Positions 17,386 through 31,699 of a stretch of 44,951 nt of DNA are shown in pieces. The DNA comes from a virus (taxonomy: Duplodnaviria > Caudoviricetes). The stretch spans positions 1 to 44,951 of the IMG/VR virus record IMGVR_UViG_3300009095_000004, one strand, 5' to 3'. The first letter of the stretch is position 1. Each line of letters starts with the position of its first letter. A model generated the notes under the pieces. It was not told the DNA's origin and did no database searches. It saw only the letters and a program-made list of their open reading frames with translations. Position numbers and translations under genes: made by a program.

Positions 17386-17476
17386 AAGTGGAACAGTAGA
17401 CGCGCCACGTTCCCGACCGTCTCGCGAGACGGGAGGGAGTTTGACGCGATTTCGAAAAAAAAACTCTAGTTTTTTC

Positions 17477-18229: not shown

Positions 18230-18311
18230 GCACGCCCCGCGCCCGACCGCTCCACGGAGCGGGAGGGCCTGGAGCGTTGGGCTTCGGGAGCCCACAGAAT
18301 GAGGTGAACAC

Positions 18312-19316: not shown

Positions 19317-19440
19317 TGCCTGAGGGAAACGAACTGACCAACACGTTTATCGACCTGGAATAACGCCCCGCGCCCGACCGTCTCACGAGGCGGGAGGGCC
19401 TGGAGCGTTGGGCTTCGGGAGCAATGGAAGGAAAAGAGCC

Positions 19441-19834: not shown

Positions 19835-20527
19835 ATGAAAGTGATTCTGTACGCCCGTTTTTCCCCGCGCCCGAACGCCGACGAGTGCGATTCCGTCGAA
19901 AAGCAGATCGCTGATATGCGGGAATACTGCCAGCGGAACAAACACGAGATCGTCGCCGAGTTTTTCGACAAGGCGTTGAGTGGCGCCGACGACGACCGGC
20001 CCGGCCTGGCCGATGCGTTCAGTAACTTACGTCGCGGCTACGCGCTCGTCGTCCGCAGCCTCGACCGGCTCGCCCGCGACAATCTGATGTCTGAGGTCTA
20101 CCGGCGCGAGATCGCCCGCCGCGGGGCGTTTCTGCTCACTCTGGACGGCATCGGCGTAGCGGACGAGACGGCCGAACAGGCATTTATGCGGATGATCTTC
20201 CAGGCTCAGGCCGAATATCAGCGCCGCAAGATTCGGGAAACCACGTCGGCCCGCATGCGGCAGCACCAGGCCAACGGCCGGCGGATGAGCGCGCGGACGC
20301 CGTACGGGGTGGTCGCCGATCCGGCCCGGCCCGGCATGATGATCGAGGACGCCGAAGAGCAGGCGAACATCGCGCGGATTCTCGAGCTTCGCCGGCAGGG
20401 GCTGGGCTATCGCGAAATCAGCCGAAAGCTCAATGAGCAGGGCATCACGTGTCGCGGCGGACGCTGGAACCATGTGACGGTGATGCGGATCATCGCCCGG
20501 GCGGAATCGGCTGCGCTCGCCCGGTAA
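19835..20527 (+). CDS. Serine recombinase (resolvase catalytic domain plus short C-terminal DNA-binding domain, 230 aa)
   Basis: YARFS catalytic Ser, D..LSG...RPGL, LVVRSLDRLARD, PYG, C-terminal 'GYREISRKLNEQGI..RGGRW..TV.RI'. Confidence 0.9.
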   Translation: MKVILYARFSPRPNADECDSVEKQIADMREYCQRNKHEIVAEFFDKALSGADDDRPGLADAFSNLRRGYALVVRSLDRLARDNLMSEVYRREIARRGAFLLTLDGIGVADETAEQAFMRMIFQAQAEYQRRKIRETTSARMRQHQANGRRMSARTPYGVVADPARPGMMIEDAEEQANIARILELRRQGLGYREISRKLNEQGITCRGGRWNHVTVMRIIARAESAALAR

Positions 20528-20542
20528 GTTACCGTTCGGCGC

Positions 20543-20578
20543 GAGAGGCCCCGGCATTCATGCCGGGGAGGATGTCAA
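20543..20578 (+). repeat. IS200/IS605-type end hairpin, copy 1
   Basis: GAGAGG-CCCCGGCA-TTCA-TGCCGGGG-AGGATGTCAA. Confidence 0.75.
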
Positions 20579-20602
20579 TGACTGTGCTAAGGGCGAGCCA
20601 TC

Positions 20603-21763
20603 ATGGCGACCACGTGCTCTAAATGTTCAAGGTCGACAGAGAAGGACCGGCTTCCGCCCGGATGGAAGCGGCACCGTGACGAGGTTTGGTGCCGCGAGTG
20701 CTGGGGCCGCGTCTATGTGATGCGAGCCGTCGAGGTGGCGGTCGCTTCGCCGGTCGATTCGACGTGGGAGGAGCTGCGGGCCGTGCTCCGCGACGCGTGG
20801 CGGGACGCAACGCGGCTGGCGAATTGGGCTGTGCAACGGATGTACGCTGCGGAGCCGGCGCATGATCCGGAAGCGAAGAAGGTGCCGAAACATCCGCTTC
20901 CGTACCTGTACCAAGAGGCACGAGTGGTCGCGCCGGCTGTCGATCCGGCCAGCACGACCAGCATTTTGCAGGCGGTGCAGCGCCGCTATATGGCGCGCCG
21001 CATGGACATCCGGCGTGCATCAATCTCGCTGCCGACGGTCCGCTTCCCGATGCCGCTACCGATCCACAACCAGTCATGGAGACTTGAGCGTGACGACGGC
21101 GGCCGCCTGATGGTTTCGTTCCGCCTGGGCGGCGCGCGGCGACGCCTCTACCTGCGCGGCGGGTCGGAGTGGAGGCGGCAAATGGCTGTGATCCGGCAGA
21201 TCGAATCCGGCGAGCTGCTGGCCGGCGAGCTTTCGATCTACCAGCGCCCGTATGTGCCAGGAAAAAACAACCCACTGATGGTCAAGATCGCCGTGTGGCG
21301 TGCGAAGAAGGTAAACGAGCGGCGCGGCGAGACGCTCTACGTGCGCACTGGATCGCCTGCGTTGTGGACCTACCGTGTCGGTGACGGCGAACCTCGACAC
21401 CTCTACGCGGACCACCTGGACAGGTGGATCACCACGTACGAGCAGTGGCGGCAGCGCATGGCCGAGGATTCGAAGTACGAGAAGCGCGTACCCAAATCCG
21501 CACAGCGCGGCATGCAGGAGGCGCGCGACCGACGGGCACGAAAGCACGCGGACCGCATGAACTCGTTCCTGCACATGAGCGCCGCGATGCTGGTGGGGTT
21601 CGCGCGTCGTAACGGCGTGTCGCGTATCGAGTACGACGACACAGATCGGAGCCGGTTCGCGTCGTTCCCGTGGGCCAAAATGTCCCTCATGGTGTCGCAG
21701 AAGGCCGAAGAATCCGGTATAGAGTTTGTTTCGAGCGGCGGCGAGTCGATCGAAGCACAGTGA
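20603..21763 (+). CDS. Nuclease-dead, C-terminally truncated Cas12f (V-F/V-U3)-like effector with N-terminal Zn finger (386 aa)
   Basis: By-eye collinear similarity to AsCas12f1-type proteins (P.D.tWeE, R...SlP, I.SGE, LH..aa.lV.fA...G...I, W......KAEEsGI); RuvC-I Asp replaced (LYVRTG); no RuvC-III or C-terminal Zn finger; adjacent to a CRISPR array. Confidence 0.8.
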   Translation: MATTCSKCSRSTEKDRLPPGWKRHRDEVWCRECWGRVYVMRAVEVAVASPVDSTWEELRAVLRDAWRDATRLANWAVQRMYAAEPAHDPEAKKVPKHPLPYLYQEARVVAPAVDPASTTSILQAVQRRYMARRMDIRRASISLPTVRFPMPLPIHNQSWRLERDDGGRLMVSFRLGGARRRLYLRGGSEWRRQMAVIRQIESGELLAGELSIYQRPYVPGKNNPLMVKIAVWRAKKVNERRGETLYVRTGSPALWTYRVGDGEPRHLYADHLDRWITTYEQWRQRMAEDSKYEKRVPKSAQRGMQEARDRRARKHADRMNSFLHMSAAMLVGFARRNGVSRIEYDDTDRSRFASFPWAKMSLMVSQKAEESGIEFVSSGGESIEAQ

Positions 21764-21878
21764 AAAGTGAATATGGCTACCGCCAAGCCAATCGTGAGCA
21801 AGGCCGGACGCCAGGCGCGCCGGACCGCTCGCGGAACGCCGTTTAAGTGTCGGGGATATCTGGTTTTCCAGCGGACCC

Positions 21879-22352
21879 CGAAGAACCGTTCTTTAAGCTT
21901 GGATCGGGCTGCGGGGACCTTCCCCATGATAGTGCGACGGCTGCGGCCTCTCGAAGAACCGTTCTTTAAGCTTTGATCGGGCTGCGGGACCGCATCGCGA
22001 TTACGCGCACGGCCGTGACAGTCGAAGACCCGTTGCTTAAGCTTGGATCGGGCTGCGGGGAGATGGATCTGCTACTGAGCCACTACACACCCGCAGCGAA
22101 GACCCGTTGCTTAAGCTTGGATCGGGCTGCGGGCTAGGCTCGCGCGGCACGAAGCCCACCCCGTGGTCACGAAGACCCGTTGTTTAAGCTTGGAACGGGC
22201 TGCGGGTGGGTGCCGCAGAAGCGGCAATCCTGCAACTCCTCCATGAAGACCCGTTGTGTAAGCTTGGATCGGGCTGCGGGTTGGCTCTGTCGCTGCGTCG
22301 CGACGCGACACTTCTCGAAGACCCGTTGCTTAAGCTTGGATCGGGCTGCGGG
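21879..22352 (+). CRISPR. CRISPR array: 7 repeats of 37 nt, 6 spacers of 34-37 nt
   Basis: Consensus CGAAGACCCGTTGCTTAAGCTTGGATCGGGCTGCGGG at 21879, 21952, 22023, 22097, 22170, 22244, 22316; unique spacers; orientation inferred from the upstream gene. Confidence 0.95.
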
Positions 22353-22384
22353 CAAGCTGCTCCGCGACCGCCAGGCGGAGAGGA

Positions 22385-22419
22385 GGAATCTCCGGCCTTC
22401 AGGCCGGGGAGGATGTCAA
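22385..22419 (+). repeat. IS200/IS605-type right-end hairpin, copy 2
   Basis: GGAAT-CTCCGGCC-TTCA-GGCCGGGG-AGGATGTCAA (GAAT guide and TCAA cleavage tetranucleotide as in the IS608 right end). Confidence 0.78.
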
Positions 22420-22522
22420 GCTTGCCGGCCTCGCACCCGATCGCCCTACGGGGCGGGAGGGTATTGGGCTGTTTGGGTAGTTTCACGCATGGAGGCGCTA
22501 CGCATGCTTGCCGAGACACACC

Positions 22523-31626: not shown

Positions 31627-31699
31627 AGCGGCGGGCAGGACTCGAACCTGCGACGCGCGGATCACACATCCGGCGCTCTGCCTACTGAGCTACCGCCGC
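31627..31699 (-). tRNA. tRNA-like gene with atypical anticodon loop (nominal TGT, Thr; possibly pseudo)
   Basis: GCGGCGG acceptor stem, GCTC/GAGC D arm, GCAGG-TTCGAGT-CCTGC T arm; loop TGTGTGA lacks U33; no encoded CCA. Confidence 0.65.

Follow-up and report, generated by a model that had tools for sequence, protein, structure and literature searches.

Two IS200/IS605-type hairpins around a phage-borne, predicted nuclease-dead Cas12f CRISPR cassette are probably later insertion scars

The window analyzed in this work is the whole 44,951-nt stretch of the IMG/VR virus record IMGVR_UViG_3300009095_000004 (Duplodnaviria; Caudoviricetes), a complete phage genome with direct terminal repeats that encodes terminase, tail, RecE, SSB and RusA proteins. 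The locus in question is a CRISPR cassette, formed by a Cas12f-like effector gene and an array of seven repeats, placed in a variable early region where a hairpin motif is repeated between the genes. The cassette is bracketed by two hairpins in the same orientation with TTCA loops (20549-20568 and 22390-22409), each followed by the tail AGGATGTCAA (to 20578 and 22419, respectively), and the tetranucleotide TTAC (20529-20532) lies upstream of the left hairpin. These are the only two matching hairpin sites in the 44,951 nt, and two sites were obtained in none of 100 shuffles. An earlier note on this DNA had described the same arrangement, whose coordinates we confirm, and had interpreted it as a CRISPR unit packaged as a non-autonomous transposon that a TnpA of the host would mobilize in trans; in agreement with its premise, no Y1 transposase is encoded in the complete genome.

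Relatives of the locus were drawn only from the contigs of sequencing runs, because a scan of viral sequences did not yield any relative of the serine recombinase gene that precedes the cassette, and the core of the CRISPR repeat had no exact match in viral contigs. Eight of the 23 runs listed were examined (X1, X2, X3, X4, X5, X6, X9 and X11, the first being possibly the source run of the phage record), all of them as assembled contigs and not as reads; assembled contigs lose rare variants. No RNA run is among those listed. The features of the locus are the following:

19835..20527, + strand, phage serine recombinase gene (Pfam Resolvase, 9.4e-27, and Recombinase); the left breakpoint of the real insertion coincides with its stop
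20528..20532, + strand, first 5 nt of the inserted cassette, including TTAC (probable later target of an insertion sequence, IS); found in the hairpin-less allele of X9, not in the empty site (X6, X11)
20533..20578, + strand, probable collapsed scar of the IS605 family, 46 nt; left arm with guide GAGG, hairpin 20549-20568 and right-end tail ending in TCAA
20579..20602, + strand, rest of the effector leader; 4 nt are missing at 20579 in X2, X3, X4, X5 and one allele of X9
20603..21763, + strand, Cas12f-like effector, predicted to be nuclease-dead, 386 aa, with an N-terminal CxxC-CxxC zinc ribbon
21764..21879, + strand, intergenic stretch of 116 nt; candidate trans-activating CRISPR RNA (tracrRNA) or leader; fold z -1.2
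21880..22352, + strand, CRISPR array of 7 repeats of 36 nt; spacers 1-6 of 35-38 nt
22207..22244, + strand, spacer 5; target 101-63 nt upstream of a sigma-factor gene, 5' flank TTG
22353..22383, + strand, spacer 7, cut to 31 nt; matched exactly over 31 nt in L097 and over 29 nt in L095, L096 and L098
22384..22419, + strand, probable solo right end of the IS605 family; guide GAAT, hairpin 22390-22409 and cleavage site TCAA; also found exactly in solo remnants and in TnpA plus TnpB elements whose left end is of the TGAC type
22420..22425, + strand, 6 nt that close the inserted DNA beyond the right end; not present in the empty site, and identical in 5 of the 6 nt to the middle of the CRISPR repeat
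22426..22461, + strand, early-region hairpin motif, right flank of the real insertion; directly after the recombinase stop in X6 and X11

To judge from their sequence, both hairpins are genuine ends of the IS200/IS605 family, as the earlier note had proposed. In the IS608 model a subterminal hairpin is preceded on its 5' side by a 4-nt guide, the TTAC target lies outside the left end and TCAA inside the right end, and insertion retains the target without any nucleotide being gained or lost (PMC3201880). Gene-less, PATE-like derivatives of these elements are also known (PMC10055086). The right copy of the window (34 nt, 22386-22419) is found exactly in 13 viral loci on 12 contigs, mostly as the right end of TnpB elements, and it is complete given that guide, hairpin and TCAA cleavage site are all present. 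In L055, L060, L061, L064 and L066 a left end cut after TGAC is located 1.7-2.3 kb upstream of this shared right end, with TnpA and TnpB reading frames between the ends at least in L055, L064 and L066; L063 is a gene-less mini-element that has the shared right end and a TGAC left end, and L054 looks like a solo remnant. We take this group of TGAC-targeting elements to be IS609-like.

The left copy has a different build. Its hairpin is exact in 26 viral loci, 24 of the left-end type with other tails and two that are right ends with a GAAT guide, and in none of the 26 is the left arm combined with the right-end tail. In L077, a TnpB-only element of 1.3 kb, TTAC, the arm (14 of 16 nt), the guide GAGG and an identical hairpin are present; the left copy of the window thus shares target, guide and hairpin with L077, but its 3' sequence is the right-end tail. 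On the basis of these matches, a tail identical to that of the right copy is abnormal for a left end, and the left copy is best described as a 46-nt hybrid in which a left-end arm is joined to a right-end tail, presumably formed by a deletion that fused the two similar hairpins of one element. The view that it is a decayed right end was discarded given the true left arm shared with L077. Stand-alone hybrids of this kind were found in two other phages, L093 and L094, the two matches of the viral scan; these mini-elements measure about 50 nt and are both inserted at TCAT, immediately after a start codon that lies on the opposite strand, and in L093 the right end is followed by a second copy of the initial 13 nt of the left arm.

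The limits of the insertion were established from relatives that lack the cassette. In X6 a single contig of 4,987 nt (depth 8.1, shorter side of at least 255 letters) joins 20527 to 22426, and in X11 20527 is joined to a variant of the same flank; therefore, the inserted DNA is 20528-22425. The empty site does not include TTAC, and the breakpoints are located 5 nt (left) and 6 nt (right) outside the IS ends. The gap between the recombinase stop and the early-region motif is 10 nt in the empty site, and at the other copies of the motif the distance from a stop is 26, 12 and 9 nt. As the last two values fit this gap, the empty state looks ancestral; the argument of the earlier note, that removal of 20533-22419 leaves a spacing of 21 nt matching the other copies, does not agree with these distances. 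The left junction (20522-20534) is a perfect 6-bp inverted repeat around one base that spans the recombinase stop and TTAC, and it is possibly filler made at capture.

The hybrid together with the effector is present at this site in six of the eight runs (X1, X2, X3, X4, X5 and X9). In X9 two alleles branch at 20532: one carries the hybrid (depth 3.7) and the other is a cassette without the hairpin (depth 6.7), in which 10 other letters replace 20533-20574 and lead to the native TCAA. Standard steps would lead from the plain allele of X9 to the hybrid one: an element enters behind TTAC and collapses, and 14 nt are deleted across a microhomology of 5 nt. In the reverse direction, the 10 letters would need a source that is unexplained.

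These alleles bear directly on the proposal that TnpA inserted the whole unit 20533-22419 at a phage TTAC as a non-autonomous IS605 element. The effector and the array are tightly bracketed by the ends, TTAC and the guide GAGG match the natural left end of L077, the right end is complete, and elements with these ends occur in the same communities (as loose ends, and as a joint of 20571 to 22385). Nevertheless, an IS608-type insertion keeps its target with nothing gained or lost (PMC3201880), whereas here the empty site is without TTAC and its breakpoints are displaced from both ends; moreover, the cassette exists at this site without the left end (X9), spacer 7 is truncated by the right end, and the joint of 20532 to 22420 is absent among the joints listed in the eight runs. 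A comparison with other effector loci goes in the same direction: IS605-type ends were found in none of 40 homologous loci, with one chance-like hairpin inside the effector gene (53 loci were fetched, 12 apparent duplicates were dropped and the record of the window itself, L014, was set aside; a few near-duplicates remain). Breakpoints elsewhere and homologous loci without the hairpins are both outcomes that the earlier note had named as contradicting its own interpretation. From the breakpoints, the X9 allele and the truncated spacer we conclude that the cassette is an insertion, as formerly claimed, and that its entry as one unit by means of TnpA is very improbable.

At the right side, the protospacer match of spacer 7 runs for 31 nt and is followed in the window directly by the IS right end, without a terminal repeat. 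Because spacer 7 is truncated by it, the right end must have arrived after the array. In L097, nucleotides 34-37 of a full-length spacer 7 would read TGAC, the target of those elements to which this right end most often belongs (TGAC left ends are found upstream of it in the six elements L055, L060, L061, L063, L064 and L066). With 129 occurrences of TGAC on the + strand of the window, a chance match within a few bases has odds of a few percent. The identity of the donor element is less certain than the order of events, because one target allele is without TGAC and a two-ended element is present in X5. The 33 nt that follow the last repeat were also considered as a decayed left end, a view ruled out since they are spacer 7.

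It could also be thought that only the right end matters, either as a terminator or processing signal of the array, or as a cut end that captured the cassette in a one-ended move that added short filler. In X3, X4 and X6 this end is connected to spacer 7, and the 6 nt that follow it (22420-22425) repeat 22352-22357 in inverted orientation and belong to a stem of 8 bp (z -2.4), an arrangement expected of fold-back filler. However, five of these 6 nt equal the middle of the repeat just after TTAA, and they are possibly the remnant of the lost terminal repeat, so that the letters by themselves would accommodate both origins. In addition, none of the 40 homologous loci ends in a right end, the arrival of this end destroyed a spacer and the terminal repeat, and one-ended moves are not part of the IS608 cycle as described in the text consulted (PMC3201880). 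We regard this explanation as unlikely.

The interpretation that we favor, with a probability of about 80%, is that the two hairpins are scars left by two independent IS605 insertions into an already present dead-Cas12f CRISPR cassette, which likely silences a competing phage. It is carried by the observed breakpoints 20527|22426, the allele that lacks the left hairpin, the hybrid nature of the left copy and the truncated spacer 7. According to this interpretation, a complete CRISPR unit, consisting of the predicted non-cutting Cas12f-like effector and its array, would have entered the early region at breakpoints outside the hairpins. On the left, a TTAC-targeting, TnpB-only element would have inserted into the own leader of the cassette, collapsed to 46 nt through a deletion that fused its two similar hairpins, and 14 nt of the adjoining flank, as far as the native TCAA, would have been lost by means of the 5-nt microhomology. 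On the right, an element, most likely TGAC-targeting, would have inserted at the end of spacer 7, and all of it but the right end would then have been deleted, together with most of the terminal repeat. Both scars have the same orientation, as predicted by the lagging-strand orientation bias of the IS200/IS605 family (PMC5027513). The locus shares with IS608, TnpB-only elements and PATEs the subterminal hairpin, the guide, TTAC and TCAA; in contrast to them, the left copy is a left/right hybrid with one hairpin, the insertion is not bounded by the ends, and the cargo would be older than they are. At both scars (20575-20578 and 22416-22424) the right-end TCAA is apparently joined to sequence that was once 3' of a TCAA or TTAA located 14-18 nt downstream; these joins possibly reflect re-cleavage by TnpA at a secondary site or a deletion at microhomology.

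Several observations weigh against this interpretation. The empty allele comes from two of the eight runs, belonging to two studies of the same year that are possibly one campaign, the hairpin-less allele from one of the eight, and all of them from assembled contigs; the empty alleles could in principle be explained by precise excision plus an 11-nt deletion. In a record of X5 both ends of the window are found around other sequence (joint 20571 to 22385, side 23), so the two ends can belong to one natural element. An allele with the cassette and without the right end was not seen in the runs examined. TGAC follows protospacer 7 in one of the four target loci (one of two alleles), and the other target allele, without TGAC, resembles the right end at 10 of 15 nt past the spacer. 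Five of the seven spacers gave no target, many of the homologous loci are short contigs, and the scan of these loci for hairpins covered one IS end group.

A different outcome of the same history would be that the scars, although separate in origin, now form a working composite element, moved by a TnpA of the host or of a co-infecting phage and spreading the CRISPR unit. The left end retains cleavage site, guide and hairpin as in L077, and the inner TCAA lacks the guide GAAT, for which reason cleavage would be expected to favor the distal right end (an extension of PMC3201880). Besides the possible source, the hybrid has been retained at this site in five runs, and in X2 a right end is also found 5' of the effector in a second context. 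If the hybrid acted only as a left end, a TnpA provided in trans would lift only the whole effector and array, that is, an accidental new cargo transposon, and the repeated arrival of ends (at two leaders and one array end) would make a dead-Cas12f weapon mobile between phages of planctomycetes. This possibility is unlikely, given that the contigs of the eight runs show neither a donor joint nor a circle junction, and no further flank next to the hybrid and effector; the hybrid and the effector were not found together at a second site in these runs nor in the 40 homologous loci, a limited sampling. Furthermore, in the second context (X2, X11) the effector is preceded by another leader, in which the left hybrid is absent, and the hybrid lacks the sequence 3' of the left hairpin, whose removal in IS608 lowers complex formation. 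The suggestion of the earlier note that a CRISPR module was recaptured by transposon ends survives only as such an accidental excisability, so far unobserved.

In this second context, present upstream of 20601 in X2, X6 and X11, a 29-nt leader resembles the spacer and -10 box of a sigma-70 promoter; it is preceded by C in X11 and by an IS605 right end in X2. The effector is about 8% diverged in X6 and X11, and the X11 copy has a different leader. The X2 arrangement suggests another independent insertion, into the -35 box of a promoter-like sequence; the alternative that this junction (right end, 29 letters, start of the effector) represents an excised circle was judged less likely than an IS insertion in the leader.

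Regarding the effector, profile and structure comparisons agree on its affiliation, and its fold, a length of the order of the 400-500 aa of Cas12f and the adjacent array are those of type V-F. PADLOC matches it to Cas12f (1.6e-14), and a Foldseek search with the predicted fold (pLDDT 85) retrieves AsCas12f (3.8e-19), TnpB (4.5e-8) and Cas12m (3.5e-5); there are also weak profile matches to TnpB (E 0.0034) and, of phmmer type, to the dCas12f 9n9c (E 0.0012). The RuvC-I position, which was set by motif and strand position, is presumably occupied by Arg (R248), and Asp is found there in one of 159 family members; the position of the RuvC-II Glu is aligned to D345, and the chain ends before the zinc finger and RuvC-III. 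An intact RuvC D-E-D triad, as judged from these positions, and the C-terminal zinc finger of type V-F Cas12f are missing; the C-terminal zinc finger is absent from all 159 family members, and the N-terminal zinc ribbon is present in 129 of them. The family comprises 695 clusters (50% identity) at E 1e-30 or better, and in 27 of the 40 homologous loci a CRISPR array is found downstream of the effector. On the strength of these models the effector is a derived, predicted dead Cas12f with a mature array, and not a TnpB in transition.

The latter had been raised as well, in the form of a unit that would stand midway in the evolution of type V CRISPR systems from IS605 TnpB elements. A protein of TnpB fold does lie between IS605 ends and has the weak TnpB profile match mentioned above; nonetheless, the closest folds are those of Cas12f, far ahead of TnpB, the family is uniformly inactivated, with mature palindromic arrays without ends, the repeat is unlike the right end, and the elements that own these ends carry an ordinary TnpB. 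With a presumably inactive, Cas12f-like effector and no such ends in the 40 homologous loci, we give this idea hardly any credence.

Among 116 neighbor open reading frames (ORFs) of 28 homologous loci no Y1 TnpA, resolvase, Cas1 or Cas2 was found, and the named neighbors are mixed (terminases, portal, one integrase, one sigma factor). A functional link to the adjacent serine recombinase, IS607-like or as a guided recombination, was rejected: the IS607 profile match is weak and far below the cut-off, no resolvase occurs near the 28 loci, and relatives have the recombinase without the cassette. In L010 and L012 effector and array are placed between terminase and portal genes, or between the genes of the small and large terminase, of other phages. 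In two further loci (L002:5143-5311 and L003:4862-5287) the arrays are about 0.9 kb from the effector and have a different repeat, with a period of 64-66 nt versus the 72-74 nt usual in the family.

The targets of two spacers were identified in another, tailed phage. Spacer 5 matches L097, upstream of a sigma-70 region 2 gene, with one mismatch and L095, L096 and L098 with four, and spacer 7 matches near codon 74 of this gene, with a 5' flank of TTC in L097; both match the coding strand of the sigma gene or its leader. The flanks TTG and TTC at the two best protospacers suggest a candidate T-rich 5' protospacer-adjacent motif (PAM), from two sites only. In the other target allele (L095, L096, L098) protospacer 7 is flanked by CAG, and this flank together with the four mismatches at protospacer 5 is as escape or simple divergence would give. 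Both protospacers are presumably present in single records of X1, X6 and X11, as indicated by joints with short sides; these joints (22244 to 22353) had been considered as an allele of the array, and are better explained as contigs of the target phage that contain both protospacers. In G004 this sigma gene is the first of a set of replication and packaging genes in the same orientation, which code for exonuclease, RusA, helicase, primase, terminase, portal and capsid proteins. Among the 120 matches listed for the sigma factor three have an organism name, and since all of them are Phycisphaerae or Sedimentisphaerales the host is probably a planctomycete (Planctomycetota). The array has no self-targets in the window (best 12-16 mismatches), for which reason self-targeting was rejected, and its comparison with phage and plasmid collections gave chance-level matches only (E 0.5 to 6).

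Taken from spacer matches and target positions, spacers 5 and 7 point to a CRISPRi-like competition between phages, directed at the sigma gene of a rival. With moderate confidence we propose that the effector would bind DNA behind 5'-TTN without cutting it and would block transcription of the sigma-factor operon of the rival phage. The process would involve maturation of the CRISPR RNA, recognition of TTN, binding without cleavage and polar silencing of the operon, the repression itself being a prediction. Roadblocks formed by Cas12 are most effective when the guide pairs to the template strand. Regarding the RNA components, the pairing of the intergenic stretch with the repeat is no better than that of shuffles (162 and 378 of 500 were as good), so that a tracrRNA in this stretch is not supported, and an Rfam scan of the cassette gave no match. 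Spacer 1 (21916-21952) differs in X5, and in X4, X6 and X11 the match ends at the first repeat; such differences suggest that new spacers are added at the effector-proximal end, although no adaptation genes are near the array.

Related systems have been described. A CRISPR-associated dCas12f cluster with promoter-directed guides was reported by Hoffmann et al. (PMC13472631), and inactivated branches of Cas12f were noted by Altae-Tran et al. (PMC10691335), whose figures and datasets may already name the clade of this effector. Compared by description, the dCas12f clusters and our cassette have in common the Cas12f fold, a C-terminal truncation of the RuvC part, an inactivating substitution, an adjacent array and guides for promoter regions; in contrast, our cassette is phage-borne, likely in a planctomycete host, has an N-terminal zinc ribbon and no adjacent rpoE, and is directed at the sigma gene of a rival phage instead of a host efflux promoter. 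Cas12m and TldR also bind DNA under RNA guidance without cleavage and silence mobile elements or genes (PMC11656645, which reviews Cas12m silencing and viral mini-arrays, and PMC13472631), an activity that is predicted here; Cas12m is larger and its fold match weaker, and TldR uses an omegaRNA and not a CRISPR array. Viral mini-arrays share with this locus a short phage array with spacers against another phage (PMC11656645), but they borrow the nuclease of the host, whereas the present array has its own effector and a predicted repressive function. In the literature searched, which left most subscription journals outside its scope, no report of a Cas12 cassette within IS605 ends was found.

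The locus thus documents a case in which IS605 scars mimic a packaged CRISPR transposon, and bracketing hairpins need to be checked against the empty site. What remains is a large and little-described phage family of compact, non-cutting Cas12f-like proteins, with two natural targets and a candidate PAM in this member, for which transcriptional silencing of the sigma-factor operon of a competing phage is predicted. As a predicted RNA-guided DNA binder of 386 aa, the effector could serve as a small chassis for CRISPRi. If the accidental pair of ends proved excisable, it would show how IS605 ends acquire kilobase cargo.

The early region in which the cassette lies contains four copies of the hairpin motif:

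17403-17437, 18233-18267, 19364-19398 and 22427-22461, early-region hairpin motif (family D3)

In relatives, gene replacement (X2, 570 other letters for 185) and reordering (X4) are observed beside this motif, which is reminiscent of the PeSL shuffling of T4-like phages. Both cases have in common a variable early region, a repeated intergenic stem-loop and gene swaps (PMC2839356); in contrast, the present phage and its motif are unrelated to those, the junction of the cassette adjoins the motif instead of lying inside it, and a promoter or terminator activity of the motif is only putative. The phage genome also carries a single tRNA gene, located at 31627-31699 on the - strand.

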